From: an uncultured Anaerolineales bacterium
Lineage (GTDB): Bacteria; Planctomycetota; Phycisphaerae; FEN-1346
Assembly: GCA_964353455.1 (NCBI GenBank)
Contig: CAYGWP010000534.1
Coordinates: forward strand, 1-54,123
Direction: 5' to 3'
DNA length: 54,123 nucleotides
Made by a program: the position numbers and the translations under genes. The notes below the pieces were generated by a model. It had not been told where the DNA came from. It made no database searches and was given only the letters and a program-made list of their open reading frames with translations. Below, piece by piece: positions 29,126-44,400 of the stretch (position 1 is its first letter; each line of letters starts with the position of its first letter).

Positions 29126-29166
29126 CTTCTTCCTCCCTTCAGGTTGTTCCGCCTTGCACACAGCAG

Positions 29167-30129: not shown

Positions 30130-31509
30130 ATGAAACAACGTTCCCACGACCGCTTGCCCGAGTCCGTCACAGACGCCATTCTGGAGAGCATTTCCGACGG
30201 CGTTTTCACGGTGGACCACGAGTGGCGGATCACGTCGTTCAACCGGGCCGCGGAGGAAATCACCGGCGTGCCGCGCCAGGAGGCCGTCGGAAGGCGATGC
30301 AGCGAGGTCTTCCGGGCCAGCATGTGCGAGGCTGACTGCGCCCTGCGCCGCACGATGGCAAGCGGCAAGCCCGTGGTCAACCAGACGGGGTTCATCGTGG
30401 ACTCTGAGGGACGGCGGATTCCGATCAGCGTCTCTACCGCCCTGCTGCGCGACGGCCGCGGCAAGGTCGTCGGCGGCGTCGAGACGTTCCGCGACCTGAG
30501 CATCGTTGAGGAACTCCGCAAGGAACTCGAAGGGCGCTTTGAACTGGGCGACATGGTCAGCCGCAGCCCCGCCATGCACCGCCTCTTTGACCTCCTCCCC
30601 CAGGTGGCGGCCAGCGGCAGCACCGTGCTGGTCCAGGGCGAAACGGGCACGGGCAAGGAACTGCTTGCCCGGGCGATCCATTCGCTCAGCCCCCGCCGCG
30701 AGAAGCCGTTCGTGGCGGTCAACTGTGGTGCCCTGCCCGACACGCTCCTGGAATCGGAACTCTTCGGCTACAAGGCGGGGGCCTTCACGGGCGCCGGAAA
30801 GGACAAGCCCGGCCGGTTTGCCCTGGCCGAGGGGGGCACGATCTTCCTGGACGAGATCGGCGACGTGAGCCCGGCCCTCCAGGTCCGGCTGTTGCGATTC
30901 CTGGAGGGGCGAACGTACGAACCGCTGGGCGGAACCCAATCCGTTCAGGCCGACGTTCGAGTCGTGGCCGCCACGCATCGGGACCTTGCCGCCCTGGTCA
31001 AGGATGGGGCATTCCGGCAGGACCTGTTCTACCGGATCAATGTCGTGCGGCTGGAACTGCCCCCGCTCCGCCAACGCAAGGCCGACATCCCGCTGCTGGT
31101 CGAGCGGTTCGTGGGGCGCCTGAACCGGCTTCGTGGGCGGTCGGTGCCTGGCGTCAGCCGCGACACGCTCGCCATCCTCATGGCCCACGACTATCCCGGC
31201 AACATCCGCGAACTGGAGAACGTGATGGAGCACGCCTTCGTCCTGTGCGGCGAGGGCCCCATTGAGCCGTCCCACCTGCCGGACGACCTGATGGCCCGCG
31301 CGCCGCCGAAGGCGCGGCGTACCGACCTTCGCGGGTCGGTCCGGGCCGCCGAGGCCCAGTCCATCCTGGATGCCCTGAAGCGGAACCACTTTAACCGGTT
31401 GGCCGCGGCGCGGGAACTGGGCATGCACAAGACCACGCTGTTCCGGAAGATCAAGGCGCTGGGTCTGAACCTGCCCGAGACGGACGGCCGTTCAGGACCA
31501 GGGGCGTAG
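30130..31509 (+). CDS. sigma-54-dependent transcriptional activator with an N-terminal PAS domain carrying a Cys-rich motif
   Basis: PAS domain (ISDGVFTVDHEWRITSFN), motif RRCSEVFRASMCEADC, AAA+ Walker A GETGTGKE, GAFTGA loop, and a Fis-type HTH (AARELGMHKTTLFRKIKALG). Confidence 0.9.
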   Translation: MKQRSHDRLPESVTDAILESISDGVFTVDHEWRITSFNRAAEEITGVPRQEAVGRRCSEVFRASMCEADCALRRTMASGKPVVNQTGFIVDSEGRRIPISVSTALLRDGRGKVVGGVETFRDLSIVEELRKELEGRFELGDMVSRSPAMHRLFDLLPQVAASGSTVLVQGETGTGKELLARAIHSLSPRREKPFVAVNCGALPDTLLESELFGYKAGAFTGAGKDKPGRFALAEGGTIFLDEIGDVSPALQVRLLRFLEGRTYEPLGGTQSVQADVRVVAATHRDLAALVKDGAFRQDLFYRINVVRLELPPLRQRKADIPLLVERFVGRLNRLRGRSVPGVSRDTLAILMAHDYPGNIRELENVMEHAFVLCGEGPIEPSHLPDDLMARAPPKARRTDLRGSVRAAEAQSILDALKRNHFNRLAAARELGMHKTTLFRKIKALGLNLPETDGRSGPGA

Positions 31510-31519
31510 AGTCGCTTTC

Positions 31520-31549
31520 ATGCTACCGTCCGGGCTGCGACAGTAGCAT
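31520..31549. promoter_or_regulatory. inverted repeat ATGCTAC-N16-GTAGCAT, candidate activator binding site (UAS)
   Basis: Perfect 7-bp arms at 31520-31526 and 31543-31549, about 110-140 bp upstream of the sigma-54 promoter. Confidence 0.4.
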
Positions 31550-31659
31550 ACGTGCAACTCTTTTGTCGGGTCGCCGTATCCCTTCCAAGGCAATTCTGTC
31601 GTCATAAGTCCTTTATAAGGCGGAGGTTAACGCCGCGGGGCCGCCCCCTGCAATTGTGT

Positions 31660-31675
31660 TGGCACGCGTATTGCT
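31660..31675 (+). promoter_or_regulatory. sigma-54 promoter (-24/-12)
   Basis: TGGCACgcgtaTTGCT matches the TGGCAC-N5-TTGC consensus. It lies 28 nt upstream of the ATG at 31703 and directly downstream of the activator gene. Confidence 0.7.
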
Positions 31676-31702
31676 CATATATCGGATCGGAGGCCATAGG
31701 CG

Positions 31703-32083
31703 ATGCGTGTTGCACTGACAGCCTGGGACGGTCGGATCTCGCCGGTGTTCGACACCGCGCGCCACCTCCAGATCGTGGATGTGGAGGGCGGTCTGCCGAT
31801 GGGGCGCGTTGAGGAACCGCTGGAAGAGTGCCTTCCGGACCGAAGGGTCGCACGATTGGGCGCGCTCAAAGTGGATGCTCTGATCTGCGGGGCCATCTCC
31901 CGGCCGCTGGCCGACATGGTCCAGACTGCCGGCATCCAATTGGTGCCCTTCGTCGCCGGACCGGTCGAGGAAGTGCTGCACGCCTTCGTGAACGGCTCGC
32001 TGCCGACGGGCATGTTCCAGATGCCGGGCTGTTGCGGCGGGCGCCGCCGGTTCCGGGGTCAGCGTGGCTGGCGTATGGCATGA
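31703..32083 (+). CDS. NifX/NifB-C-terminal-like (dinitrogenase FeMo-cofactor-binding fold) protein with a Cys/Gly/Arg tail
   Basis: MRVALTAWDGRISPVFDTARHLQIVD...ALICGAISRPL...IQLV. The tail reads MPGCCGGRRRFRGQRG. Confidence 0.75.
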   Translation: MRVALTAWDGRISPVFDTARHLQIVDVEGGLPMGRVEEPLEECLPDRRVARLGALKVDALICGAISRPLADMVQTAGIQLVPFVAGPVEEVLHAFVNGSLPTGMFQMPGCCGGRRRFRGQRGWRMA

Positions 32084-32122
32084 GGCCGCAACCCGGCTGT
32101 CTGTCCAAGGAGGACGCGAAAG

Positions 32123-33268
32123 ATGCCTCGAGGCGAAGGAATCGGGCCCTACGGGCCAGGAAGACCGGCCGACGCCGATCTCGCTTGGCGATTCTGGGAC
32201 AGCGGCCCTGTGCCCACGCGCCTTGCAGAGATCCTTGGTCGTGCAATGGCGAGTGAAGGGCCATCGAAGGAGGACTGCATTTATCTACTCTGCTTTCCAG
32301 AGCGCTCCATCGAGGCGGGGATGATCCGCACCGTGGCGGACGCGGTCTCCCGGAAACGTTTCGGGAACGAGGCGATGCTGCTGGGGCAGATCGGCGTGGC
32401 TATGGCCCCCTGTGACGGCGGATGCGCGTTCTGCGCCTTTGCCAAGCCTCATACGACGATCCGGGAGTCCACCCTCTCGGTCGAAGAGACGATCGAGAGG
32501 GCCATCGCCTTTGAACGTGGGGGCGTGGCCGGCATCTTCATCATGACCATGCACTATTTCGGCTTCGAATGGTTCCTCGACCTGGTGTCGCGCGTCAGCA
32601 AGGCCCTTCCGGCTGAAACGAGACTGCTGGCGAACATCGGCGACATCGACGCCGCGCAGATGCAGGCCCTCAAGGACGCAGGGCTGACGGGCGCCTACCA
32701 TGTCTGCCGCCTGCGCGAAGGGATCGATACCCACATGACCCCCCGGCAGCGGATCCGCACCATTGAGTGTGTCCGCGAAACGGGGCTGGACTGGTACAAC
32801 TCCTGCGAGCCGATCGGACCGGAGCATACTCCGGAGGAACTGGCCGAGCAGATCCACCTCGGACGGGAACTGGGCTGCGCCCAGCACGCGGCGATGCGAA
32901 GGTTCCCCGTGCCGGGTTCGCCCCTGTTCCGTCACGGGCAGGTCTCGCTCTCGCGACTTGCCCAGATCGTGGCGATCATCTCGTTGGCCACTCTTGAGTC
33001 GAAGACCGTTCGAAGCATCGCCGTGCACGAACCCAATCTTCTTGGGCTCATGAGCGGTGCAAATGCCCTCTACCCGGAGGCAGGGGAGCCTGATCCTGCA
33101 CCCGAAGGCGCCCCTCTGACAGGACACGAGGCGACGGAAGGATTCAGTTCGGCCCTTTGGCGGCGCACTCTGGAGATCACCACGGCCGATTGTCGGAAGA
33201 TGCTCCTGGAGACGGGCTTCACGACTCTTCGACGTGGCAACGGAACGACGGTGCCTCTGAAACTGTGA
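32123..33268 (+). CDS. radical SAM protein, BioB/HydE-like layout, with an N-terminal MPRGEGIGPYGPG extension
   Basis: AAGGAGGA upstream of the ATG; CDGGCAFC motif. Paralog of 11480-12523, but with about 30 extra N-terminal residues that resemble the DUF5320 N-terminus. Confidence 0.8.
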   Translation: MPRGEGIGPYGPGRPADADLAWRFWDSGPVPTRLAEILGRAMASEGPSKEDCIYLLCFPERSIEAGMIRTVADAVSRKRFGNEAMLLGQIGVAMAPCDGGCAFCAFAKPHTTIRESTLSVEETIERAIAFERGGVAGIFIMTMHYFGFEWFLDLVSRVSKALPAETRLLANIGDIDAAQMQALKDAGLTGAYHVCRLREGIDTHMTPRQRIRTIECVRETGLDWYNSCEPIGPEHTPEELAEQIHLGRELGCAQHAAMRRFPVPGSPLFRHGQVSLSRLAQIVAIISLATLESKTVRSIAVHEPNLLGLMSGANALYPEAGEPDPAPEGAPLTGHEATEGFSSALWRRTLEITTADCRKMLLETGFTTLRRGNGTTVPLKL

Positions 33269-33280
33269 AGGAGACAAGCC

Positions 33281-33526
33281 ATGCCAGGTGGAGATGGAAC
33301 GGGTCCGATGGGAATGGGACCGATGTCCGGTCGAGGCGCGGGATTCTGCGGCGGCTTCGGCGTGCCGGGGTCCGCCAATCCGGTGATGGGTCGTGGTCGC
33401 GGCGGCCGGGGGCGCGGCCTCGGCCGTATGTTCTGGGCGGCGGGGGTTCCGGTCTGGGCCCGCCTTGGCTGGGGCGCGCTATCATACGCCTTCGGGCCCC
33501 CCACGCCGGAAGTCGAACGCGAGACG
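33281..33526 (+). repeat. near-identical duplicated segment (pairs with 34499-34744)
   Basis: Hand alignment gives about 16 mismatches in 246 nt between the 5' parts of A1 and A2. Confidence 0.85.
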
Positions 33527-33619
33527 CTGAAGCAACAGATGGGTGCCATGGAGGCCCAGTTGGACGCCATCAAGCGGCGGCTTGAAGAACTCCAAGGCAG
33601 CCAGACCAAGGAAGACTGA
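33281..33619 (+). CDS. DUF5320-type protein, coiled-coil class (A1)
   Basis: MPGGDGTGPMGMGPMSGRGAGFCGG...GRGRGGRGRG... with a C-terminal heptad-like EAQLDAIKRRLEELQ. AAGGAGA Shine-Dalgarno upstream. Confidence 0.8.
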   Translation: MPGGDGTGPMGMGPMSGRGAGFCGGFGVPGSANPVMGRGRGGRGRGLGRMFWAAGVPVWARLGWGALSYAFGPPTPEVERETLKQQMGAMEAQLDAIKRRLEELQGSQTKED

Positions 33620-33761
33620 AAGCCGAACCCGCTGGGAAGTAAGGGCGAGAGAGAGGCGGCAGTGCGGGCCCTTGCACGGCCTCTCTCCACCCTCTATCCC
33701 CCGGCCGCCGCCAGAGGCAGTCACGCACAAGTGCGGTGCGGGGGCTGATGGCGGCAGGCGA

Positions 33762-33944
33762 GTGGGCCCTTGCGGCCGCGGCTTCGGCGGTCGAGGACGC
33801 GGACGGATGGGTGGGCCGTTCGGCGCTGGGCCGAGCGGGATGTGCGCGTATCCGAAGTGCGGGCATGGTGAACCGCACCGGCGCGGTGAGCCGTGCAACC
33901 GGAAGTCCTGCCCGGAGTGTGGGACGAAGCTGACCAGAGCGTGA
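33762..33944 (+). CDS. DUF5320-related zinc-ribbon protein (B1), 5'-truncated relative to B2; start uncertain (GTG 33762 or ATG 33807), possibly decaying
   Basis: ...GPSGMCAYPKCGHGEPHRRGEPCNRKSCPECGTKLTRA aligns with the B2 C-terminus. No MPRGDGTGP start is present in this frame. Confidence 0.45.
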   Translation: MGPCGRGFGGRGRGRMGGPFGAGPSGMCAYPKCGHGEPHRRGEPCNRKSCPECGTKLTRA

Positions 33945-33969
33945 AAACCTTATTACAGGGAGATTAGTC

Positions 33970-34152
33970 ATGCCAAGAAATGATGGAACTGGTCCGACCG
34001 GGCAAGGGTCCAGCACCGGCCGCAGGCGCGGTCCTTGCGGCGGTGGAAAGCGAAAGGGGCCATCGGCTGGAGCCAGCAAACGGCGAGGGCGAGGCCAAGG
34101 GCAAGGCGGGAAGGGACGCGGCTCGGGCCGTGGCCAAGCGGGCGGCCGTTAA
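33970..34152 (+). CDS. small Arg/Gly-rich protein with a DUF5320-type N-terminus (C)
   Basis: MPRNDGTGPTGQGSSTGRRRGPCGGGKRKG...GRGSGRGQAGGR, with GGGAGA upstream of the ATG. Confidence 0.5.
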   Translation: MPRNDGTGPTGQGSSTGRRRGPCGGGKRKGPSAGASKRRGRGQGQGGKGRGSGRGQAGGR

Positions 34153-34185
34153 ACAAGAATTACAAATAGAGAAAGGAGAATAGAA

Positions 34186-34512
34186 ATGCCCGGGTTTGGA
34201 TCCCCCTTTGCCGGGGTGGCACACGACAGAAAACTAACCGATGAAGAACTAATCCGTGCCATACGTTTCATGGTGGCTGCAGAGTACGAGGCGATTCAGT
34301 TGTACATGCAACTCGCCGAGTCAATAAACAACAAGCTCGCCATCGAAGTGCTCAAGGACATAGCGGACGAGGAACGCGTTCACGCTGGCGAGTTCATGAG
34401 ACTCCTCCGCGAGATTGCCCCTGACGAGCAAGAGCACTATGCCAAGGGTGTAGCGGAAGTTGAAGAGGAAATCGAAAAGCTGAAGAAAGGAGACAGCAAT
34501 GCCAGCGGGTGA
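34186..34512 (+). CDS. small ferritin-like protein (single E...ExxH half-site, EncFtn/rubrerythrin-like)
   Basis: LTDEELIRAIRFMVAAEYEAIQLYMQLA...VLKDIADEERVHAGEFMRLLREI, with AAGGAGA upstream of the ATG. Family placement is by recall. Confidence 0.65.
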   Translation: MPGFGSPFAGVAHDRKLTDEELIRAIRFMVAAEYEAIQLYMQLAESINNKLAIEVLKDIADEERVHAGEFMRLLREIAPDEQEHYAKGVAEVEEEIEKLKKGDSNASG

Positions 34513-34834
34513 TGGAACGGGTCCGATGGGAATGGGACCGATGTCCGGTCGAGGCGCGGGGTTCTGCGGGGGCCTCGGTGTGCCGGGGTACGCCAATCCG
34601 GTGATGGGTCGCGGTCGCGGCGGCCGGGGGCGCGGCCTCGGCCGCATGTTCTGGGCGGCGGGGGTTCCGGGCTGGGCCCGCCTCGGATGGGGCGCGCTAT
34701 CGTACGTCTTCGGGCCGCCCACGCCGGAAGTCGAACGCGAGACGCCGTGTTCCCAGGCCGAGTACTTCGGCAACGCCCTTGAAGAAATCCGCAAGCGGAT
34801 CGAGGAACTTGAGTCTGAGGCAGAGAAGAAGTAG
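34499..34834 (+). CDS. DUF5320-type protein, coiled-coil class (A2)
   Basis: MPAGDGTGPMGMGPMSGRGAGFCGG... with a C-terminal AEYFGNALEEIRKRIEELESE. The ATG overlaps the last 14 nt of the ferritin-like gene. Confidence 0.8.
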   Translation: MPAGDGTGPMGMGPMSGRGAGFCGGLGVPGYANPVMGRGRGGRGRGLGRMFWAAGVPGWARLGWGALSYVFGPPTPEVERETPCSQAEYFGNALEEIRKRIEELESEAEKK

Positions 34835-34970
34835 GCATACCGCAGAAGGGTGCTGGGTGAGGGCGCGCAGGTAACGGGGGCGGATGGCGGCACGCGCGGG
34901 CCCTTGCGGCCGCGTCCGCCCTCTAGCCCGCGCCATCGCAGCCACGGACCAGGTATGGAGAGGTGATGTC

Positions 34971-35225
34971 ATGCCACGAGGCGATGGAACAGGACCGTTC
35001 CGACAAGGCCCCGGTTTGGGCCGAGGCGGCGGCGCAGGCGGCAGAGGCCGCGGCCTGGGCGCCGGCGGGCCGGGGCGCGGACGCCTACGGGGTCCTTTGG
35101 CCGCCGGGCCGGGCGGCACGTGCGTGTGCCCTCAGTGCGGCACGACGGTTCGCCACGAGCGGGGCGTGCCGTGTGCCCAGATGAAGTGCCCGAAGTGCGG
35201 CGCGGCCATGACGCGCCAGGCGTGA
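34971..35225 (+). CDS. DUF5320-related zinc-ribbon protein (B2)
   Basis: GGAGAGG 7 nt upstream of the ATG. Reads MPRGDGTGPFRQGPGLGRGGG...TCVCPQCGTTVRHERGVPCAQMKCPKCGAAMTRQA. Confidence 0.7.
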   Translation: MPRGDGTGPFRQGPGLGRGGGAGGRGRGLGAGGPGRGRLRGPLAAGPGGTCVCPQCGTTVRHERGVPCAQMKCPKCGAAMTRQA

Positions 35226-35344
35226 TGCGGCAGCCCTGGGCGTCCCAGGTCGCCGGGTAACAGAACAAAGTAGCCTTTCATGTCGATATGGTACTCTATT
35301 CTGGCGCCGAATAAGCGCGAGAGTCGAAGTTAGGAGAACAAGAC

Positions 35345-35548
35345 ATGAAACGCACAATGGTTCTGACCCTGCTGTTGCTCATGGCGAACCTGCTGCTGTT
35401 CAGTGCAGGGTGTGCGGCTCCCCAGCAGAGGCCGACAGACGCACAGCCGGAGATCAGGCAGCCGGAGTGGCGTCCTGCCTGGGTAAGAGACGGGCGATGG
35501 GATCCGCATTGGGTAAAGAACGAGCCGTATCGCCCGTGGCCCCTATAG
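35345..35548 (+). CDS. small lipoprotein, Trp/Pro-rich
   Basis: AGGAGA Shine-Dalgarno. MKRTMVLTLLLLMANLLLFSAGC lipobox, then PEWRPAWVRDGRWDPHWVKNEPYRPWP. Confidence 0.5.
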   Translation: MKRTMVLTLLLLMANLLLFSAGCAAPQQRPTDAQPEIRQPEWRPAWVRDGRWDPHWVKNEPYRPWPL

Positions 35549-35572
35549 TTGATGTGGGGACGCGAACATCCT

Positions 35573-35755
35573 ATGCCGGGACTCGACGGGTACAACCTCG
35601 GGCATGGGGCGCGTCCGGCGCGAGACGGCGTTCCGCGTTGCCGCGGCCAGTGCGTGTGCCCGCTGTGAGGGACAACCGCCCCCCGTGAGCGCGGTGTGCC
35701 CTGCGCGCAGCAGAAGTGTCCGCAATGCGGGGCGCGCTTGACCAGGCAGGCCTAG
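35573..35755 (+). CDS. candidate selenoprotein: DUF5320-related zinc-ribbon paralog (B3) with an in-frame TGA at 35666-35668
   Basis: [62 protein letters not shown]. The TGA aligns with a Cys in CPQCG of B2, and conservation continues to the TAG at 35753. Confidence 0.6.
35686..35709 (+). other. candidate SECIS-like stem-loop downstream of the TGA
   Basis: UG(A)GCGCGG-[UGUGC]-CC(U)GCGC(G)CA. It has 8 base pairs with one bulged U and one A/G mismatch, starts 18 nt after the TGA, and places its loop 27-31 nt after the TGA. Folded by hand only. Confidence 0.35.
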
Positions 35756-35911
35756 CGGCCGGTTAAGGCGGACATCGGGCGCCGCGGTTCAGGCGTAGCG
35801 TGACGCGATGAGGAGGCGGCCCGATCAACCAGCCGCACGGGCGTCCACAAGACATAGCCGTTGGCACACCGCCAGCGGGGAACCCAGTGTGCGTGGAGAG
35901 GAGACGCGACG

Positions 35912-36268
35912 ATGGCCAGATCAGCGAAAGAAGTTCTCGCGGAGTTTCAGGCCAACCTGCCCAAGATGCAGAAGGCCATCCCCCAGGTGACGGACGACTT
36001 CGTCAAGAGGCTGATGCCCGATGTGTTGAATGACGGCGTGCTGACGACGAAGCAGAAGGAACTGATCGCGCTCGGGATAGCCGTCTGCGCGACCTGCGAC
36101 TATTGCATCGCCATCCACGTCAAGAAGTGCTTCGACGCAGGTGCCACGAAGGCAGAGATCGCGGAGGCCTGCGGCGTGGCCATCCTGATGGGCGGCGGCC
36201 CGGCGCTGACTTACTCCGCCTTCGTCTTCCAGGCCATCGAGGAGATGGCCCCAGGGACGGCCGTTTAA
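35912..36268 (+). CDS. carboxymuconolactone decarboxylase / AhpD-like protein
   Basis: KQKELIALGIAVCATCDYCIAIHVKK (CxxC...H core), with GGAGAGGAGA upstream of the ATG. Confidence 0.8.
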   Translation: MARSAKEVLAEFQANLPKMQKAIPQVTDDFVKRLMPDVLNDGVLTTKQKELIALGIAVCATCDYCIAIHVKKCFDAGATKAEIAEACGVAILMGGGPALTYSAFVFQAIEEMAPGTAV

Positions 36269-36372
36269 CATCCGGCGGCAAGACGCTCGAATCGTAGGCC
36301 GGCCCCGTTCCGGTCGCGCCGCGTGCCAGAGTCGGCGCGGGTGCTGAGCCTTGACAGTGGCGGAGTGGCGGG

Positions 36373-36918
36373 ATGACCAAGCCCCAGGGACGGGTGGCAT
36401 TTGCATTCATGGTTCTCGTGTTCCGCGTCCGGGACCGCGTATGGCCGCCGGCCGAGGTGCTCCGTCAGGTGGGCGTCCTGCCAGGGCACACGGTTCTGGA
36501 CTTCGGCTGCGGCCCGGGGGGCTACTCGCTCGCGGCGGCGCGGCTGGTCGGCCCGGCCGGCAAGGTCTATGCCCTGGACTTCAATCCGCTTGCGGCCAGG
36601 GCGGTCGAGAGGGCCGCCGGGAAGGAGCGCCTTGGAAATATCACGGCGGTCCTTGCCGACAGCGCGGCAGACGTTCCGAACGGGAGCGTGGATGTCGCGG
36701 TCCTGCACGATGTGCTCCACCTGCTGGCCGATCCGGCGGGCGTCATCGCCAGCCTTCGCCGCGCTCTCAAGCGGGAAGGCCGGCTCTGGGTGGGTGATCA
36801 CCACATGAAGGGCGCGGCGATTGTCTCCGCTGTGACCGCTGGGGGGTTCTTCCGGCCATCACGAGACGGCCGGCGGTGCCAACGGATGTACGGCTTCGAG
36901 CCGACGAACCGGGAGTGA
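36373..36918 (+). CDS. class I SAM-dependent methyltransferase
   Basis: VLDFGCGPGGYS motif I and VDVAVLHDVLHLL. Confidence 0.75.
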   Translation: MTKPQGRVAFAFMVLVFRVRDRVWPPAEVLRQVGVLPGHTVLDFGCGPGGYSLAAARLVGPAGKVYALDFNPLAARAVERAAGKERLGNITAVLADSAADVPNGSVDVAVLHDVLHLLADPAGVIASLRRALKREGRLWVGDHHMKGAAIVSAVTAGGFFRPSRDGRRCQRMYGFEPTNRE

Positions 36919-36922
36919 GCCG

Positions 36923-38788
36923 ATGATACTCGCCGTGGCGAGCGGAAAAGGCGGGACAGGCAAGACGTTCATCGCCACCAATCTGGCGGCGGCCATGGGC
37001 GCCGCTTACGTGGACTGCGACGTGGAGGGCGCCAACGGCCACATCTTCTTCAGACCCGAGATTGCCGTGCGCCGGCCGGCCGCCATCGACGTGCCGCAGG
37101 CCTCCGACGCCTGCACTGGTTGCGGGGCTTGTGCCATGGTCTGCCGGTTCGGCGCCTTGGCGGCCCTGAAGTCGGGCGTCCTGGTTTTCAACGAACTGTG
37201 TCACTCGTGCGGGGCGTGCTTGGAGGCATGCCCGTCGCACGCCCTCCGGTGGACGAAGCACGTGCTGGGGCACGTGCGGCTCGGACGTTGCCGCGCGGGG
37301 CGCGGCCAGTGGCTGCCCTTTGCCGACGGCGAGTTGGCGGTCGGGCAGATCCGCGCCTCGGCCGTCATCCGGCAGGTCAAGCAAGCCGTCGGTGCGGTCG
37401 CGCGCACGATCATCGACTGCCCGCCGGGGGCCTCGTGCGCAGTGGCCGAGGCCGTCCGCGGGGCCGACCTGTGCCTCTTGGTGACGGAACCGACGCCGCT
37501 CGGCCTCTCGGACCTCGGCAAGGCCCTCGCACTGGCTCGCCATCTGGGGGTGCCCTGCGGCGTGGTCCTGAACCGCGGCGGCCTGACCGGGGTGGACGTG
37601 GGGGCGTTTTGCCGCGAGCACGAGGTGCCGCTGGTTGCGACCTTCCCCTATGACCAGGGCGTGGCGCGCCTCTACGCCGAAGGCCGCCTCGTCGTCGAGG
37701 AATTGGCCGGCTGGCGCCGGCAGTTTGAAACGCTGGCCGCGGAGGTCCTTGCAATGGCGTCGTGCCCCCCGGCACACCGGGCCGAGGCATCGGCCGTGGC
37801 CAGAACACTCGCCGGGGCTGAGGAGCCATCTGCCGCCGGCCCGTCGCGGCCGCGGGAAGATGCGTTTCAGGTGGTGATCCTGAGCGGCAAAGGCGGAACA
37901 GGAAAGACCTGCCTGGCCTCATCCCTGGCTGTGATGGGAGGGAGCGTGGTGGCTGCCGACGCCGACGTCGATGCGGCCAACCTGCACCTGGTGCTGAAGG
38001 TCAATGGCGAGCGGCAGGTGCCCTTCAGCGGCGGGCACGTGGCGGCGATAGACCCCGCCAGATGCCGGGGCTGCGGCGTCTGCGCCAACGAGTGCCGCTT
38101 CGAGGCCATCGCACTCGGGGAGCACGCCATTGTCGATCCCTTGAAGTGCGAGGGGTGCGGCCTGTGCGCCCTGGTGTGCCCCTTGGCAGACACCGACGAG
38201 CAGCCCGTCCGGCTCCTCCCCCGTCTCTCTGGCTATGCTTATGTGGGGGACCTGCCCAACGGCGCGCTGGCGCGCGGCGAGTTACTGCCCGGGGGCGAGG
38301 CTTCCGGCAAACTCGTGACGCTCGTCCGGCGGATGGCCGACGCGCGGGCGGCCGACACCAGCCACTTACGGATGATCATCGACGCGTCGCCCGGCATGGG
38401 GTGTCCCGTCAACGCCAGTCTGACCGGCTGCGACTGGGCCATTGCCGTCACCGAGCCGACGCAGAGCGGCCTGCACGACCTGCGCCGGGCTCTGGACCTG
38501 GCGGCGTGGTTCAAGGTCCCCGCCGCCGTCGTCATCAACAAGGCCGACCTGTGCCCGGAAGTGGCGGCCGAGATTCGGGCCGCATGCGGGGAGCGGGGTG
38601 TCGAGATCATCGGCGAGATTCCTTTCGACCGGCACGTGCCCGAAGACCTGGCGTTGGGCCGGGCTCCGGTTCTTGGGAGCGGAGGCGCCGCCACGGCGTT
38701 GCGCGAGGTATGTCGTGTCATTTGGAGTCGCCTGGCAGTGTCCAAGGATCAGAGGAGAGCGAACCGTGAAAGTATGCCTACCCGCTGA
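36923..38788 (+). CDS. fusion of two MinD/ParA-type P-loop ATPases, each with an inserted 4Fe-4S ferredoxin domain (COG1149-like x2)
   Basis: Two GKGGTGKT Walker A motifs (residues ~8 and ~318). Ferredoxin motifs CTGCGACAMVC / CHSCGACLEACP and CRGCGVCANEC / CEGCGLCALVCP. Confidence 0.85.
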   Translation: MILAVASGKGGTGKTFIATNLAAAMGAAYVDCDVEGANGHIFFRPEIAVRRPAAIDVPQASDACTGCGACAMVCRFGALAALKSGVLVFNELCHSCGACLEACPSHALRWTKHVLGHVRLGRCRAGRGQWLPFADGELAVGQIRASAVIRQVKQAVGAVARTIIDCPPGASCAVAEAVRGADLCLLVTEPTPLGLSDLGKALALARHLGVPCGVVLNRGGLTGVDVGAFCREHEVPLVATFPYDQGVARLYAEGRLVVEELAGWRRQFETLAAEVLAMASCPPAHRAEASAVARTLAGAEEPSAAGPSRPREDAFQVVILSGKGGTGKTCLASSLAVMGGSVVAADADVDAANLHLVLKVNGERQVPFSGGHVAAIDPARCRGCGVCANECRFEAIALGEHAIVDPLKCEGCGLCALVCPLADTDEQPVRLLPRLSGYAYVGDLPNGALARGELLPGGEASGKLVTLVRRMADARAADTSHLRMIIDASPGMGCPVNASLTGCDWAIAVTEPTQSGLHDLRRALDLAAWFKVPAAVVINKADLCPEVAAEIRAACGERGVEIIGEIPFDRHVPEDLALGRAPVLGSGGAATALREVCRVIWSRLAVSKDQRRANRESMPTR

Positions 38789-39128
38789 AGCCCCGCGCCT
38801 CGACGCGCGGGTGGACGAGCGCCTGGGCCGCGCGGCCTGTTTCGTGCTGGTCGATAGCGAGACCGACGCTGTGCTCATCAGCATCCCCAATGTGCAAAAC
38901 AAGCAGGCCGCGCAGGGGGCCGGCATCCAGGCCGGGCAGGCCATCGCCTCCCTGGAACCGGACGCCGTCCTCTGCGCCAACTGCGGGCCGAAGGCGTTCC
39001 GCGTTCTCCAGGCGGCGGGCATCAAGGTCTTCCTCGGCGCGGCAGGCACGGTGGGCGAGGCCGTCCGCGCGCTTCGGGAAGGCCGGCTTCAGGAGGCCAC
39101 GGACGCCAACGTCGAAGGGCATTGGTGA
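38766..39128 (+). CDS. NifX/NifB-C-terminal-like protein
   Basis: The GTG start overlaps the end of the upstream gene. FVLVDSETD...GAGIQAGQAI...DAVLCANCGPKAFRVLQAAGIKVF. Confidence 0.75.
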   Translation: MKVCLPAEAPRLDARVDERLGRAACFVLVDSETDAVLISIPNVQNKQAAQGAGIQAGQAIASLEPDAVLCANCGPKAFRVLQAAGIKVFLGAAGTVGEAVRALREGRLQEATDANVEGHW

Positions 39129-39156
39129 CAGGGCAAAGCAACCACGACATGGAGAA

Positions 39157-40383
39157 ATGATGGAACCGAAACAACACAGTCACTGCGGGGGAACGTGCGA
39201 TGCCGACCCGCGCAAGGAAACCGAGCGCCGCCGCGATGAGAACCTGCGGCACATCCGCCGCGTCGTCGCCGTCATGAGCGGCAAGGGCGGCGTCGGCAAG
39301 AGCACCATTGCCGCGTCGCTGGCCCTGAGCCTGGCGCGCCTGGGTCACAAGACCGGCCTGCTGGACGTGGACTTCCACGGCCCTAGCGTGCCGACGCTCC
39401 TGGGCATCCGCGAAGTGCGCGCCGCTTCCGACGGAGGACAACTCCAGCCCGTCCGCTTGGGCTGCAACCTGGGCGTCATGAGCCTGGGGCTCCTCCTGGC
39501 CGAGGGTGACCAGGCCGTCATCTGGCGCGGGCCGATGAAGATCGGCGTCATCGACCAACTACTGGGCGAGGTGGCCTGGGGCGACCTGGACTTCCTTGTC
39601 CTCGACTGCCCGCCCGGCACGGGCGACGAACCGCTCACGATCGGCCAGGTCGTGCCGGCGGCGGAGGTGGTCATGGTCGGCACACCCCAGGAGGTGGCGA
39701 TGGCCGACGTCCGGAAGGCCGTCTCGTTCTGCGAGCAACTCGGCCTGGCGGTCCTCGGCCTCGTGGAGACGATGGGGATGATGCGGTGCCCGACGTGCGG
39801 GGCCCAGGTGCCGCTCTTCCGCCGCGCCAAGGACGCGAGGCCGCCCGAGGTCCGGCTGCTGGCCGAAATCCCGTTCGACGCGGCTCTCCAGGCAGCCTGC
39901 GATCAGGGGCGCCTGGAAGCGTTCCTTGACGAGCAAAGCCCCACCGCCGAAGCCCTGATGGCCCTGGCCCGCGAGGTGGCCGGTCAGGCCCCCGCAACGG
40001 CACCACAAGCAACGGTCTCAGAAAACCCTATCCAAGGAGGTAACGGTAACATGCGCTACGCGATTCCCACAGAAGACGGCCGGTTGACCGCGCACTTCGG
40101 ACACGCCGGTGTGTTCACATTGATTGATGTTGAGAATGGCCAGGTCTGCCGCACGCAGGCGGTGAACCCGCCGCCTCACGAGCCGGGCGTGCTGCCCCGG
40201 TGGCTGAAGGAGCAGGGCGTCAACGTGATTATCGCCGGCGGCATGGGCCAGCGGGCACAGGCCCTGTTTGCCGAAAACGGGATTCAGGTCGTCGTCGGCG
40301 CCGAGGCCGCCCCGGTCGAGGACCTCGTGCGGCAGCACCTGGCCGGCGCTCTGAAGACCGGCGAGAATGTCTGTGACCATTGA
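39157..40383 (+). CDS. Mrp/NBP35/ApbC-type Fe-S cluster carrier ATPase fused to a C-terminal NifX-like domain
   Basis: VMSGKGGVGKST, DCPPGTGDE and CPTCG. The C-terminal domain reads MRYAIPTEDGRLTAHFGHAGVFTLIDVE...VIIAGGMGQRA. Confidence 0.85.
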   Translation: MMEPKQHSHCGGTCDADPRKETERRRDENLRHIRRVVAVMSGKGGVGKSTIAASLALSLARLGHKTGLLDVDFHGPSVPTLLGIREVRAASDGGQLQPVRLGCNLGVMSLGLLLAEGDQAVIWRGPMKIGVIDQLLGEVAWGDLDFLVLDCPPGTGDEPLTIGQVVPAAEVVMVGTPQEVAMADVRKAVSFCEQLGLAVLGLVETMGMMRCPTCGAQVPLFRRAKDARPPEVRLLAEIPFDAALQAACDQGRLEAFLDEQSPTAEALMALAREVAGQAPATAPQATVSENPIQGGNGNMRYAIPTEDGRLTAHFGHAGVFTLIDVENGQVCRTQAVNPPPHEPGVLPRWLKEQGVNVIIAGGMGQRAQALFAENGIQVVVGAEAAPVEDLVRQHLAGALKTGENVCDH

Positions 40384-40499
40384 GGCTGCGGGCAGCGACC
40401 ACCACGGTGCGTAGGCCATCGCCTGCCTGTTCACACATCGAGTAACGGCGGCGAAGCGGCGAAGAAAAGCGGCCGCTGCTCGGGGGCAAGGAGCCGGTC

Positions 40500-41183
40500 A
40501 TGGACGCGACCAAGAGGAAGTTCTTCTCGCTGCGGGGATTCACATCCTTTGCCGTGACCCTGTTTTTCCTCATTCTGATCGCCTCCGGCGCCGTCCTCTT
40601 CGCGGCACCCCGAGGCCGGGATGCCAACTGGTCCGCTTGGCAGGTGATGGGGCTTCTTCGCCCGGAGTGGGTCGCTCTTCATGTCCTCACAGGGTGTGCT
40701 TTCGTGGTCTTTGGAACGATCCACCTGGTCCTGAACTGGCGGCCCCTCTGGCATTACGTCCACGTGAAGGCCGAGGCCGGTATTCATTTCTGGAAGGAAC
40801 TGCTTCTGGCGGTCGCACTGGTCGCGGTTCTATCCGCGGGTGCGATCCTGCGGTTCCCGCCAATGGCGACCGTGATGGCGTGGAACGAGCAGATCAAGGA
40901 CGCTTGGACCGCGGCCTTGTCCTACGCCCCCCGTGATCTCGCCGAGGAGGCTTCCCTGGAGGACTTGGCCGCGCGGGCAGGTGTACTGTCAGAAGCACTG
41001 ATTGCGGCGCTGCGCCAGCGAGGTTACGACATAAGCAGCCCCCAGGATTCCCTTACCCGCGTTGCCGAGGCCAACCACACAACTGCGGCGGCCATCTTCC
41101 GTGACCTGCAGAAGGACTACCCGCAACTGGGCGGCGGCAAAGGGCGGGGGCGCCAGTTCGGGGAAGGACGGCGACGGCCATGA
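40500..41183 (+). CDS. membrane protein, DUF4405-like
   Basis: AAGGAG Shine-Dalgarno. Four TM segments with conserved His (HVLTGCAFVVFGTIHLVLNW). Family assignment by recall. Confidence 0.55.
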   Translation: MDATKRKFFSLRGFTSFAVTLFFLILIASGAVLFAAPRGRDANWSAWQVMGLLRPEWVALHVLTGCAFVVFGTIHLVLNWRPLWHYVHVKAEAGIHFWKELLLAVALVAVLSAGAILRFPPMATVMAWNEQIKDAWTAALSYAPRDLAEEASLEDLAARAGVLSEALIAALRQRGYDISSPQDSLTRVAEANHTTAAAIFRDLQKDYPQLGGGKGRGRQFGEGRRRP

Positions 41184-42034
41184 GTGACGCCCTTGGCGCA
41201 ACGTGCCCTGCGCAGTCGCTCCGCCTCACCGTCCTCGTCGAGAACACGTGCCCTGTAGGCGGACTGGTCGCGGAACATGGCCTCGCGCTGCTCGTGGAAA
41301 CGGATCGCGGCGCGGTCCTGTTCGACGCGGGGGCCACGCCGGCCGTCTTGGCGGCCAATGCCGCCGCGCTAGGCGTCGACCTGGCCCGCGTAAGCGCCGT
41401 CGTCCTCAGCCACGGACATTACGACCACACGGGCGGTCTGCCGGCAGTTCTGGCCGCAGCGCCGTCAGCCCGCGTGTACTACCACTGGCGGTGCGCGGTC
41501 CCGCGGTGGGGCCGACGTTGGTGGGTCAGGAAATCCATCGGTATGCCCGCCGAGAGTCGCCGGGCGCTGGAATCGGCCGCACGCGAGCCGGTCGCCGGCC
41601 CTGTGCTCCTGCCGGAAGGCGTCATCCTCAGCGGCCCCATCCCCGGCGCGCCCGCTGCGGCCCAGGACGGCTTCCTGGTTGACTCGGACGGCGGCCCGCA
41701 ACCGGATGACTTTACGGACGAGATGTTCCTCCTCGCCCGCACGCCCTCCGGCTGGCTGCTTGTGACCGGCTGCTGTCACCGTGGCGTCGAGAACACCCTC
41801 GCCCACGCCATGACGCTGACTGGCGGCGAGCCCGTTCACGCGATTCTCGGCGGACTCCATCTCAAGGACTTCCGGCCCCGCGACCTCGAACCGGTTGTGG
41901 CCGCCCTTCGCGGAGCCGGTGTACGCGAGGTTCTGTGCGGCCACTGCACCGGCGAGGCCGCGCAAGAACACCTTGCCGGCCATCTGCAAAGCCGGGTGCA
42001 GCCGATTCACGTCGGATTTCGGTATGAGGCGTAA
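41180..42034 (+). CDS. MBL-fold metallo-hydrolase
   Basis: EHGLALLVE...VVLSHGHYDHTGG motif. ATGA overlap with the upstream gene. Confidence 0.75.
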   Translation: MSDALGATCPAQSLRLTVLVENTCPVGGLVAEHGLALLVETDRGAVLFDAGATPAVLAANAAALGVDLARVSAVVLSHGHYDHTGGLPAVLAAAPSARVYYHWRCAVPRWGRRWWVRKSIGMPAESRRALESAAREPVAGPVLLPEGVILSGPIPGAPAAAQDGFLVDSDGGPQPDDFTDEMFLLARTPSGWLLVTGCCHRGVENTLAHAMTLTGGEPVHAILGGLHLKDFRPRDLEPVVAALRGAGVREVLCGHCTGEAAQEHLAGHLQSRVQPIHVGFRYEA

Positions 42035-42045
42035 GGAGTAACACC

Positions 42046-43437
42046 GTGGTTGAATACGTGTACGGCCCCGTGTTTTCTCGCCGCTTGGGCCGTTCGCTCG
42101 GCGTTGACCTGGTACCGCTTAAGATCTGCACGTATGACTGCGTTTACTGCCAACTGGGCCGGACGACGAACAAAACCCTCGAACGAAGGGAATACGTGCC
42201 CCTGCCGGACGTTCTGTCCCAACTGGACCGCCGGTTGCGGGACAAACCGGCACTGGACTTCATCACCCTGGCAGGCTCGGGCGAACCCACCTTGTACGCG
42301 CGGCTCCCCGAGGTGATCCGCGCCGTCAAGCAGCGGACGGCAACGCCGCTGGCCGTCTTGACCAACGGCTCTCTTCTGTGGGACCCCCAGGTGCGGGATT
42401 CCCTGCGGGAAGCCGACCTCGTCATCCCGTCACTGGACGCCGGGAACGAGCGGATCTTCCAGTACGTGAACCGCCCCCACGAAGATATCGCATTTGAGAA
42501 GATGGTAGATGGCCTCGTTGCCTTCCGGCATGAGTTTGTCAAGCCCATCTGGCTTGAGGTCTTCCTCCTTGGGGGCATTACGGCTATCGATGTCGAGGTA
42601 CAGAAGATGGTCCACCTCGTTGACCAAATCAGGCCGGACCGTGTGCAGTTAAACACCGTGGCGCGTCCGCCGGTCGAGGCCTTCGCGATTCCGGTCCCCG
42701 ATGACCAGTTGCGCGCGCTGGCCGCGATGTTCGGCCACCGGGGCGAGGTCATCGCCGCCCGGCCGGACACGGGTGGCACGACGCTTCGCCCTGCAACGGA
42801 AGCCGACATCCTGAACCTGCTCCGTCGGCGTCCGTGTACGCTTCGCGACTTGGCCGACGGACTGCGCCTGCATCCCGCTGAAGCCATGAAGCAGATCGAC
42901 CACCTCCTGGCAGGCGGCCTCCTGACGGCCGCCTCGGAGGGCGGACATATCTTCTACCGCGCGCCCCACAACTTCCTTGCGTCGCCGAAGACCCAACTCG
43001 ACACGGCAGAACACCGTGTGGAGGAGTCCGGGGCTTTCTGGGACGAGGATATGATGGATGTGCCCGAGGAGTATTCCGCCCTGGCCGTCGAGCGGTTCTA
43101 TGATCCTCGTAACCGAGGCCCCATGACGGCGCCCGATGGCCACGCCGTAATCACGGGGCCCTGTGGCGACACGATGGAGATCTGGCTGCGAGTGGCAAAC
43201 GGGCGGATCAGCCAGGCCACCTTCACGACCGACGGCTGTGGCCCCTCGCTCGCCAGCGGAAGCATGGCGACAGAATTGGCCGGCGGCAAGACCCTTGACG
43301 AGGCGGCGCGGATCGAGCAACAAGACATCCTGGACACCCTGGGCGGCCTGCCGGAAGGATCCCGGCATTGCGCGCTTCTGGCCGCCAACACGCTTAAGGC
43401 CGCCATCGAGAATTTCAGAAACCGGCGGGCGGAGTGA
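42046..43437 (+). CDS. radical SAM protein fused to a C-terminal IscU/NifU-N-like scaffold domain
   Basis: GTG start with AAGGAG 7 nt upstream. YGPVFSRRLGRSLGVDLVPLKICTYDCVYCQLG, and a C-terminal GPCGDTMEIWL...TTDGCGPSLASGS...RHCALLAANTLKAA. Confidence 0.8.
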   Translation: MVEYVYGPVFSRRLGRSLGVDLVPLKICTYDCVYCQLGRTTNKTLERREYVPLPDVLSQLDRRLRDKPALDFITLAGSGEPTLYARLPEVIRAVKQRTATPLAVLTNGSLLWDPQVRDSLREADLVIPSLDAGNERIFQYVNRPHEDIAFEKMVDGLVAFRHEFVKPIWLEVFLLGGITAIDVEVQKMVHLVDQIRPDRVQLNTVARPPVEAFAIPVPDDQLRALAAMFGHRGEVIAARPDTGGTTLRPATEADILNLLRRRPCTLRDLADGLRLHPAEAMKQIDHLLAGGLLTAASEGGHIFYRAPHNFLASPKTQLDTAEHRVEESGAFWDEDMMDVPEEYSALAVERFYDPRNRGPMTAPDGHAVITGPCGDTMEIWLRVANGRISQATFTTDGCGPSLASGSMATELAGGKTLDEAARIEQQDILDTLGGLPEGSRHCALLAANTLKAAIENFRNRRAE

Positions 43438-43513
43438 CGGCGAGGGCCCTGCGGCAAATGGGGTCACGGCCCATCGGTTTGCGCCAGGCCAGGCATCACA
43501 TGAGGGCAACGAC

Positions 43514-44344
43514 ATGCCTTTCGACGAAGTCGAGATCACCAGGGCGATCCTGGACCAGTACCACGAGAAGGTCACGCGCAGCCTGACCGGCGACGTCGCC
43601 ATCATTGGCGCGGGCCCCTCGGGCTTGGTTGCCGCTGATCAACTGGCCAGGGCCGGCGTCAGAGTTACGGTCTTCGAAAAACGCCTGGCGCCCGGCGGCG
43701 GGGTCTGGGGAGGCGGTATGGGAATGGCCGTCGCTGTGGTGCAGGAGGCGGCCGTCCCCCTTCTGCGGGAGATGGGAATCCGCCATCTCCCGGTCGGGGA
43801 AGGGCTCTACGCCGTTGACGCCATCGAGTTGGCGGGCACGCTGTGCGTCCGAGCGGTCCAGGCGGGGGCGGTCCTGCTGAACCTGACCGTGCTGCAAGAT
43901 GTCATCATTCATCAAAGCCGCGTCGCTGGCGTGGTCGTCAACCGGGCGGCCCATTCCGGCGCCCTTCCTGTGGATCCGGTGGCCTTCTCGGCGAAGGTTG
44001 TCATCGACGCCACGGGCCATGAGGCCGCAGTGGTCGAGGCCCTGCGACGCAGGGGGCTGCTCGGGTCTAATGGGGGCAACCTTCCGGGCGAGGGCCCTAT
44101 GGATGCCGCCGCCGGCGAGGCTTTCGTCGTTGAGAATGTGGCCGAAGTGTACCCCGGTCTTTGGGTGTGCGGGATGAGCGTCTGCGCAACGTTCGGCGGG
44201 CCGCGCATGGGGCCGATCTTCGGCGGCATGTTGATGTCCGGCCGGCGTGTGGCCGAATGCGTTCTGGCGGCCCGGCAAGTCATCCCTGGGGCATCAGGAA
44301 CTGGGGCGCCAACGGCTGGCGGACACCCTCAAGCCGGGCGCTAA
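43514..44344 (+). CDS. thi4: Thi4-type thiazole synthase, non-suicidal (sulfide-dependent) form
   Basis: DVAIIGAGPSGL, DATGHEA (no active-site Cys at the yeast position), and GGPRMGPIFGGMLMSG. Confidence 0.85.
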   Translation: MPFDEVEITRAILDQYHEKVTRSLTGDVAIIGAGPSGLVAADQLARAGVRVTVFEKRLAPGGGVWGGGMGMAVAVVQEAAVPLLREMGIRHLPVGEGLYAVDAIELAGTLCVRAVQAGAVLLNLTVLQDVIIHQSRVAGVVVNRAAHSGALPVDPVAFSAKVVIDATGHEAAVVEALRRRGLLGSNGGNLPGEGPMDAAAGEAFVVENVAEVYPGLWVCGMSVCATFGGPRMGPIFGGMLMSGRRVAECVLAARQVIPGASGTGAPTAGGHPQAGR

Positions 44345-44400
44345 CGTCTGTGACCGCTGACGACCCGACAAGGCGACGTGGTGCGCTCCCGAGAAGGGGG

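Follow-up and report, generated by a model that had tools for sequence, protein, structure and literature searches.

The orange protein (ORP) complex has been studied since 2011, and its function is still unsettled. Its biochemistry is that of a physical complex, with a Mo-Cu-S cluster on the orange protein and Fe-S transfer from MrpORP (PMC6345978). The complex includes two MinD-like proteins with two [4Fe-4S] motifs each (Orp3 and Orp4), the NifX-fold proteins Orp5 and Orp8, and MrpORP itself (Orp9), the Di-Nase domain of which has the motif CXHFGHCE at its start and CDH at its end (PMC6345978). The orp genes of Desulfovibrio are transcribed from sigma-54 promoters under the activator OrpR (PMC6345978, PMC8359166), in which a [4Fe-4S] cluster of the PAS domain senses redox potential; Cys52, Cys61 and Cys65 are required for this, and position 54 is Asp or Glu (PMC8359166). 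Here, we analyzed a gene cluster on contig CAYGWP010000534.1 of an uncultured bacterium (assembly GCA_964353455.1; 54,123 nucleotides [nt], the whole of which is called the window below). Judged by its predicted products, the cluster represents a planctomycete (Phycisphaerae-like) version of the ORP operon. It is an unusually expanded variant of this known operon type, and two uncharacterised families of small proteins, namely DUF5320 (PF17253; types A and C) and a related family (type B), appear in it as new members.

The core of the described complex is present in the window (Table 1). The Mrp-NifX protein matches the NCBIfam equivalog model for MrpORP over residues 33-400 with 470.2 bits (NF041136, cut-off 450 bits), the MinD-type ATPases form one fused chain of 621 amino acids (aa) in which each ATPase carries a 2x[4Fe-4S] ferredoxin insert, and two single-domain NifX-fold proteins are encoded. 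These components, together with a sigma-54 promoter, an activator with a Cys triad in its PAS domain, and an anaerobe-type genomic context, are shared with the ORP system of D. vulgaris Hildenborough (PMC6345978, PMC8359166, PMC3897727). Unlike the Desulfovibrio arrangement, in which two divergent operons flank orpR, all operon genes here lie on one strand downstream of the activator gene in a single co-directional operon, as they do in most related loci. In addition, the two MinD-ferredoxin genes are fused, the CXHFGHCE motif of MrpORP is not kept, and the window adds the small proteins A, B, and C, an EncB-type ferritin, an AhpD-family protein, a methyltransferase, radical SAM enzymes, a metallo-beta-lactamase (MBL)-fold protein, and Thi4. 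The first-pass annotation of this DNA had seen no known system in the cluster; its activator, promoter, MinD-ferredoxin, NifX-like, and Mrp-NifX genes are nonetheless those of the described OrpR/ORP/MrpORP system (PMC8359166, PMC6345978). The general reading given at that time, namely the assembly or trafficking of a metal-sulfur cluster with no obvious client enzyme and with DUF5320 proteins of unknown function, holds. Similar folds serve in nitrogenase cofactor maturation, which likewise uses radical SAM enzymes, NifX-fold carriers, SIMIBI-class Fe-S ATPases, and an IscU/NifU scaffold. However, the ATPases here are of the MinD and Mrp types rather than NifH, and no nitrogenase, NifEN, or NifDK genes were found in the window or in related loci.

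DUF5320 was found in the genomes of at least 528 species. Among the DUF5320 loci of these species-representative genomes, the best 80 were compared with the window by tblastn with the window proteins (about 90 genomes were compared in all), and these loci span Planctomycetota, Chloroflexota, Desulfobacterota, Firmicutes, Omnitrophota, Zixibacteria, Acidobacteriota, and Spirochaetota, among others. At least one of NifX, MinD-ferredoxin, and Mrp was encoded within 10 kb of the DUF5320 gene in 76 of the 80 loci. NifX domains were the most frequent partners (69 loci), followed by MinD-ferredoxin (59), the B-type knuckle (51), Mrp (46), a radical SAM/IscU type (39), MBL-fold proteins and OrpR-type activators (28 each), and DUF134 (15). 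The EncB-type ferritin was found in three loci and the BioB-like radical SAM enzyme in one, with AhpD, Thi4, DUF4405, and the small lipoprotein in none. The commonest gene order was activator, NifX, B, A, NifX, MinD, MinD, (radical SAM), Mrp-NifX, and MBL.

As an internal control, the frequency of each gene type was followed with distance from the DUF5320 gene. On either side of that gene, about 50% of loci had NifX within 2.5 kb versus 2% at 7.5-10 kb upstream, B-type genes lay within 2.5 kb upstream in 45% of loci, and the activator was found upstream only and MinD downstream only. In the reverse direction, six of seven loci anchored on MrpORP encoded DUF5320 (L134, L135, L136, L139, L141, and L142, with L140 as the seventh). 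The steep decay with distance, the polarity, and the reverse sample thus show that the adjacency is operon architecture and not chance. A fortuitous neighborhood of DUF5320 with NifX, MinD, and Mrp is refuted and of negligible probability, since order and polarity are kept across many phyla and the association falls steeply with distance. The first-pass annotation had itself proposed that its reading be abandoned if DUF5320, NifX-like, COG1149-type, and Mrp genes showed no recurrent linkage; the comparison was run, and the linkage is both recurrent and polar. A- and B-type proteins are accordingly placed, as far as gene neighborhoods tell, among the regular small subunits of the ORP operon in most phyla outside the Desulfovibrio layout.

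The claim that the cluster is headed by a sigma-54 activator and a near-consensus -24/-12 promoter was borne out by Pfam domains and by a unique motif match. The promoter element, TGGCACGCGTATTGCT, is the sole strict -24/-12 match in the whole 54 kb window, lies 27 nt before the ATG of the gene for NifX-like protein 1, and is retained in relatives. A relaxed form of the motif was present in 17 of 22 activator-to-NifX intergenic regions of related loci versus 0.13 per kb across loci. The PAS segment of the activator, CSEVFRASMCEADC, contains C-x-[DE]-x6-C-x3-C, with the spacing of Cys52, Cys61, and Cys65 of OrpR and a Glu at +2, and the same motif was found in 28 of 31 activators adjoining DUF5320 loci. 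Binding of an Fe-S cluster by the PAS domain is predicted from this likeness to the OrpR triad. An imperfect inverted repeat at 31508-31561 is a candidate activator-binding site and stands where one is expected; GTCGC...GCGAC blocks are kept in four relatives (L001 and L134-L136), about 100-150 nt upstream of the -24/-12 element. A possible site for integration host factor between the inverted repeat and the promoter, TAAGTCCTTTATAAGG, was read by eye only and is not claimed.

The small proteins had been described as six DUF5320-type proteins with the motif MPxGDGTGP. This applies to A1, A2, and C, which pass PF17253 (gathering threshold 27 bits), and not to B1, B2, and B3, for which no PF17253 match was obtained at E <= 0.1; the motif is intact in A1, A2, C, and B2, degenerate in B3 (MPGLDGYNL), and absent in B1. 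A1 has more than 1200 homologues, and the A-type consensus is MPGGDGTGPMGMGPMTGRGAGxCxG, in which the Cys is invariant; a Gly/Arg/aromatic stretch comes next. In the AlphaFold2 model of A1 (23% Gly), residues 1-57 have a predicted local distance difference test score (pLDDT) mostly below 55, suggesting disorder, and are followed by helices at residues 58-71 and 76-110; the N-terminal part has an isoelectric point (pI) of 11.9 and the helical C-terminal part one of 4.8. C (pI 12.0, 37% Gly, 25% Arg+Lys) has an orthologue in L135 (1898-2086).

The B family, with a length of about 75 residues, is represented by 207 homologues of B2 (pI 11.4) at E <= 0.01. Alignment of 113 sequences revealed a near-invariant N-terminal MPRGDGTGP, a Gly/Arg-rich linker, and a C-terminal Cys6-His knuckle, C-x-C-P-x-C-G...H...G-x-P-C...C-P-x-C-G. 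Five of its Cys are invariant; the remaining Cys and the His are kept in at least 90% of the sequences. B2 keeps every conserved position, and its AlphaFold2 model has a disordered N-terminal part and a small beta knuckle at residues 48-84 (pLDDT 84-91). Some B-family homologues elsewhere carry a precomputed PF17253 match or the NCBI name DUF5320, and the alignment marks the B-type proteins as a conserved sister family of DUF5320 with the same N-terminal motif. Every member of A, B, and C has a conserved Cys. Profile searches of the PDB with the small proteins returned nothing better than E = 0.01, Foldseek with the B2 model returned generic zinc-ribbon and rubredoxin knuckles alone (E > 0.6), and no Rfam match was found in 31400-36500.

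B-type open reading frames (ORFs) are present, with no gene called, at L001:4713-4916, L001:5576-5830, L135:2929-3201, and L136:~6880-7115, so the B family is probably under-counted in databases. Complete B-type modules were also observed at the C-terminus of DUF134 putative DNA-binding proteins (P0140, P0147, P0165, P0184, P0188, and P0200). In one metagenome-assembled genome (MAG) of Desulfobacterales (L030:9291-9965), a NifX-like domain with an MPGC-Arg tail runs into a C-type DUF5320 module with no stop between them; this module begins MPRGDGTGP and matches PF17253 with 24 bits, giving an IssA-like architecture in one ORF.

How the window came to hold so many copies was traced in its close relatives (L001 and L134-L138). 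The closest MrpORP relatives, at 82%-89% identity, are encoded in MAGs of Phycisphaerae, among them one that bears the order label FEN-1346, and the window (G+C 65%) fits this group in having DUF1559 and PEP-CTERM genes. A1 and A2 are 93% identical over their 5' 260 nt and differ in their helical C-terminal parts, and the A protein of L001 is 95% identical to that of the window. L001 has the order A, spacer, and B2, and in the window B1-C-EncB-A2 occupies that spacer. An intact B-type gene (L001:4713-4916) follows NifX-like protein 1 in L001, where the window has the BioB-like radical SAM gene. Codons 1-16 of this radical SAM ORF (32123-32170), MPRGEGIGPYGPGRPA, are identical to the first 16 residues of that B-type product, and the similarity of the enzyme to its paralogue encoded at 11480-12556 (48% identity) begins no earlier than residue 30. 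The radical SAM gene thus seems to have displaced the body of a former B gene and to use that gene's start as its own. By this alignment, the start is a seventh B-type copy, of which only a vestige is left. B1, which has lost its 5' end and has Tyr for the second Cys, is possibly a remnant as well. The count of small proteins in the window is four intact (A1, A2, C, and B2), two damaged (B1 and B3), and one vestige. L135 has the order NifX-C-ferritin-A-B-AhpD-methyltransferase, with a C-ferritin segment 90% identical to that of the window, and together with L001 its layout implies that the window therefore combines modules found separately in relatives. Read from these alignments, the small-protein genes of the window multiplied, at least in part, by recent mosaic expansion.

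The BioB-like radical SAM enzyme, which is absent from L001 and L134-L138, is a lineage-specific insertion. Consequently, the suggestion that the small proteins are substrates of a radical SAM enzyme is not supported for this one, which was found in a single one of the 80 loci and in none of the closest relatives. Its acting on A1 was rejected as an explanation of general reach, since the insertion is confined to this lineage. The EncB-type ferritin recurs in L135 in addition to the three loci of the wider sample. Similarly to EncB/EncFtn cargo proteins, the 108-aa protein passes the EncB_fam model (NF058679, cut-off 90 bits); unlike them, its gene lies within an ORP operon between C and A2. 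An encapsulin system was rejected because no shell gene was found among the approximately 55 window ORFs scanned, and the protein appears to carry no evident C-terminal targeting peptide.

The in-frame TGA that had been reported in B3 was confirmed at 35666-35668, where it aligns with the third conserved Cys, invariant in the family. The frame runs on past the TGA to the usual C-terminus of the family, with the Gly/Arg linker collapsed and Arg at the conserved His. Compared with four intact B genes, the B3 knuckle, including 28 codons 3' of the TGA, has 0.15-0.21 nonsynonymous (pN) and 0.67-0.85 synonymous (pS) differences per site. The knuckle, including the part 3' of the TGA, evolved under purifying selection. 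A TGA at an invariant ligand Cys in a frame with low pN versus pS downstream could encode selenocysteine (Sec) and so make B3 a metal-binding selenoprotein with a CxCPxU site, encoded in the ORP operon, which we consider doubtful. The window does encode SelD (353 bits, cut-off 125) and a YedE-family selenium transporter (447 bits, cut-off 200), and the neighboring AhpD and methyltransferase resemble families having Sec forms; AhpD also gave sub-threshold matches to (seleno)protein AhpD-type models. However, no structure like a Sec insertion sequence was detected around the TGA (z = -0.69 versus shuffles), nor any Rfam match, and a 5-bp GC stem with a GU-initiated loop, seen by eye some 28 nt past the TGA, is nothing unusual for DNA of 65% GC. 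A stop at the Cys position was found in none of 55 other B-type knuckles (88 sequences), and a pattern scan of 241 million metagenome records for the Sec knuckle yielded 46 matches, 45 of them unrelated GC-rich DNA and one a degenerate B gene. The loss of the conserved His and the collapsed linker also argue against a functional selenoprotein, as do the relatives: the candidate positional counterpart directly upstream of AhpD in L135 has Cys and His, and L001 retains only a 30-aa stub. SelD is of the Cys type, and the window has no tRNA-Sec, SelA, or SelB. Since the selection signal fits a recent TGC-to-TGA mutation equally, a recent pseudogene is the more likely state of B3 and explains all the observations made on it. 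The earlier idea of selenium carriers thus comes down to a single TGA.

The only other B-type knuckle with a TGA at the same Cys (L093:~560-810, CICPD*GEKAAHQLGTPCYDQKYPKCG) probably belongs to a pseudogene, since one Cys has changed to Tyr and the MPRGDGTGP start is missing. The selenium genes of the window lie on the minus strand within 8633-13361 (SelD, TIGR00476, 9946-11052; YedE family, TIGR04112, 8633-10021), and beside them are a BioB/PylB/HydE-like radical SAM gene (11480-12556), a DGC-domain protein gene, and a PadR regulator gene. This radical SAM enzyme is the paralogue of the operon copy mentioned above, so the family may be selenium-linked.

To our knowledge, Fe-S storage of the IssA type, in which thioferrate is bound and nanoparticles form, is known from one archaeon only. 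IssA of Pyrococcus furiosus joins a NifX-fold domain to a disordered cationic Gly/Arg/aromatic tail with one Cys, and this tail has been proposed to wrap anionic thioferrate (PMC5524996). The present locus resembles IssA in that a NifX-fold domain (IPR003731) is accompanied by a disordered, cationic, Cys-bearing Gly/Arg/aromatic segment. NifX-like protein 1 ends in ...MPGCCGGRRRFRGQRGWRMA, a Cys/Arg/Gly tail of 20-22 aa with pI 12, MPGC-Arg/Gly tails are also found on the first NifX gene of many related loci, and in L030 the NifX domain and the DUF5320 module share one ORF. From the cationic Cys-bearing segments, the tails of the first NifX proteins, and the single ORF of L030, we therefore propose that the small proteins of the ORP operon hold metal-sulfide in the manner of the IssA tail. 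This is the best explanation we can offer, and we judge its chances to be about evenly balanced.

As inferred by homology, the OrpR-type activator would turn on the sigma-54 promoter under reducing conditions. The transcript would supply MrpORP as an Fe-S carrier, the fused MinD-ferredoxin ATPases, and the NifX-fold carriers, as well as the recurrent partners, namely the radical SAM-IscU fusion and the MBL-fold protein. The disordered cationic Gly/Arg/aromatic segments of A, B, and C, with their invariant Cys, would act as the C-terminal tail of IssA does, binding and charge-neutralising anionic metal-sulfide (thioferrate-like Fe-S or a thiometallate) on or between the NifX-fold carriers. The A-type helix would mediate oligomerisation, with the B-type knuckle as the binding site of a metal or cluster. 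Unlike in IssA, the cationic segments here are mostly separate small proteins starting with MPxGDGTGP, to which A adds a long helix and B a Cys6-His knuckle.

Several observations weigh against the proposal. The likeness to IssA is one of composition and architecture, not demonstrated homology. Arg/Gly-rich (RG-rich) disordered segments are also typical of nucleic-acid binders, and B modules are fused to the DNA-binding DUF134. In the MrpORP of the window, the start of the Di-Nase domain reads LTAHFGHAG, with both Cys replaced, and the terminal ...VCDH is kept. What the ORP complex does in the cell is itself unsettled (PMC6345978 calls it "putatively involved in cell division"), and a literature search found no published function for DUF5320/PF17253. 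Lastly, L140, a deltaproteobacterial locus with a Desulfovibrio-like gene set, lacks DUF5320, and the characterised ORP complex may thus not require it.

The main alternative is that the small proteins are regulatory or nucleic-acid-binding factors in which RG-rich segments and a zinc ribbon bind DNA or RNA, or, in a variant, in which the B knuckle senses a metal or cluster and controls a DNA-binding partner, tuning the operon or linking ORP to cell division. The whole B modules on DUF134 (UPF0251) proteins, which have a helix-turn-helix resembling sigma-70 region 4, speak for such a role, as does the occurrence of DUF134 genes chiefly in those DUF5320 loci that have no OrpR-type activator (they also occur in L005 and L139). 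The nearest folds to the knuckle, at non-significant scores, are zinc ribbons of RNA polymerase and ribosomal proteins. DUF134 is encoded in many DUF5320 loci; in contrast, the window has no DUF134 gene and has an OrpR-type activator in the position of the regulator. The A and B genes, moreover, sit between NifX genes within the structural operon, past the promoter and apart from the regulator, the modelled A-type structure has no recognisable DNA-binding fold, and six Cys and a His exceed the needs of a structural zinc ribbon. The NifX-DUF5320 ORF of L030 and the cationic tails of the first NifX proteins tie the RG-rich module to a carrier domain instead, and we regard a regulatory role as rather improbable.

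It is also conceivable that the small proteins are targets of the radical SAM enzymes or the methyltransferase, for instance for modification of Arg or Cys, or precursors resembling ribosomally synthesized and post-translationally modified peptides. The invariant N-terminal motif and Cys would suit such a substrate, a radical SAM enzyme of the type fused to a winged helix-turn-helix (wHTH) and IscU recurs across the wider sample, as counted above, and the class I methyltransferase is fixed in place in all close relatives. Nevertheless, the BioB-like enzyme beside A1 is the lineage-specific insertion described above, and the association of the recurrent radical SAM enzyme with an IscU/NifU scaffold, by fusion or as a neighbor, speaks for cluster chemistry over peptide maturation. 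No protease, transporter, or leader/core organisation was seen, and the small proteins are conserved over their whole length. A substrate role is less likely than the regulatory one, and we consider it very unlikely.

The proposal that the small proteins hold metal-sulfide can be extended to the whole operon, in a form that we put forward as a tentative and on balance unlikely one. DUF5320 and its Cys6-His sister family may be missing subunits of the ORP machinery, free-standing equivalents of the IssA tail, with B3 perhaps using a Sec ligand. Together with the NifX-fold carriers, the MinD and Mrp ATPases, and the radical SAM-IscU protein, they might build, store, or hand over a polyanionic metal-sulfide under the redox control of OrpR; the candidate material would be thioferrate-like Fe-S or a Mo/W-Cu thiometallate. 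If this is true, the ORP complex, long enigmatic, would gain a concrete biochemical role in anaerobes of many phyla. Should the small proteins be constant partners of ORP genes in hundreds of anaerobic species, they may account for the way in which anaerobes hold and move labile anionic metal-sulfide. The value of the locus is that it places two uncharacterised small-protein families in the ORP operon and so leads to a testable hypothesis. For annotation, a context-based name for PF17253 proteins would be ORP-operon associated; the sister family is defined and unnamed, of about 75 aa, and not reliably assigned to DUF5320 by Pfam, and gene callers miss B-type genes, as in L001, L135, and L136.

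Table 1. Features of the ORP-type operon in the window, from the activator gene to Thi4
Feature	Position	Strand	Evidence
OrpR-type sigma-54 enhancer-binding protein (PAS, AAA+/Sigma54_activat, HTH_8)	30130..31509	+	Pfam
Imperfect inverted repeat, candidate activator site	31508..31561	+	23-nt arms, 74% complementary
Sigma-54 -24/-12 promoter TGGCACGCGTATTGCT	31660..31675	+	strict motif match
NifX-like protein 1, cationic Cys/Arg/Gly tail	31703..32083	+	PF02579, 39 bits
BioB/PylB/HydE-like radical SAM enzyme	32123..33268	+	family scans
A1, DUF5320	33281..33619	+	PF17253, 102.1 bits
B1, 5'-truncated B-type copy	33807..33944	+	sequence, alignment; no Pfam match
C, 60-aa DUF5320 N-module alone	33970..34152	+	PF17253, 32.0 bits
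EncB-family ferritin-like protein, 108 aa	34186..34512	+	NF058679, 99.1 bits; Pfam Rubrerythrin/EncFtn-like
A2, second DUF5320 protein	34499..34834	+	PF17253, 88.8 bits
B2, intact B-type protein	34971..35225	+	family alignment
Small predicted lipoprotein	35345..35548	+	ORF with signal peptide and Cys
B3, divergent B-type paralogue with in-frame TGA	35573..35755	+	sequence, alignment
AhpD/CMD-family protein (CxxC), accessory	35861..36268	+	PF02627, 68 bits
Class I SAM methyltransferase (ArsM/UbiE-like)	36373..36918	+	family scans
Two fused MinD-type ATPases, Orp3/Orp4-like	36923..38788	+	Pfam CbiA x2, Fer4 x4
NifX-like protein 2 (Orp5/Orp8-like)	38790..39128	+	PF02579, 68 bits
MrpORP, Mrp/NBP35 ATPase-NifX-like fusion	39151..40383	+	NF041136; Pfam ParA and Nitro_FeMo-Co
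DUF4405	40500..41183	+	Pfam
MBL-fold hydrolase	41180..42034	+	Pfam
Radical SAM-wHTH-NifU_N fusion	42046..43437	+	Pfam
Thi4	43511..44344	+	Pfam

ORF listing and family scans show a plus-strand gene series that is uninterrupted from the activator through 44344. The longest ORF of the activator begins at 29896, and its likely ATG is at 30130. Terminator-like sites in 31400-45100 did not exceed the shuffled expectation, and the next promoter-like site is of the sigma-70 type, at 44401-44429, ahead of a Fur-family (PerR-like) gene. Because terminators are not in excess, the sigma-54 promoter is unique, and the ORF listing agrees, the map of the first-pass annotation, a plus-strand block with the same gene order and families, is therefore correct. 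Membership is less even for AhpD, Thi4, and DUF4405, which had been listed as part of the block: they are missing from all 80 wider loci, as counted above, whereas AhpD is present in L135 (and absent from L001) and DUF4405 in L136-L138. The small lipoprotein has an orthologue in L001, and the methyltransferase holds an identical position in every close relative.

The operon is flanked by FeoB (23282-25009), which in L001 directly adjoins the activator side, and beyond its other end by the Fur-family (PerR-like) regulator and a catalase (44467-46521); these flanks are an iron and oxidative-stress context. About 3.7 kb between the FeoB-side genes and the activator gene (26437-30167) are absent from L001. 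This stretch holds two TupA-like solute-binding proteins (sub-threshold TupA matches of 120 and 45 bits), a CBM96-domain protein with a PEP-CTERM-like end, and a protein with an N-terminal methylation (prepilin-type) motif. ARAGORN called an 87-nt tRNA-Lys(CTT) at 25490-25576 on the minus strand, inside a methyltransferase ORF (24996-25928) of the opposite strand and within a 146-nt stretch that has no counterpart in L001; the call may be a false positive or a small insertion. Genes that recur around the ORP/DUF5320 operons of L134, L135, L139, L141, and L142 are TrmO_N, 1-Cys peroxiredoxin, PvlArgDC, NifU_N, CGGC, DUF364/DUF4213, and ZnuA/ABC-3 transporters. In the window, ZnuA/ABC-3 genes are found upstream of the operon (20921-22978) and DUF364 downstream of it (46555-47301).

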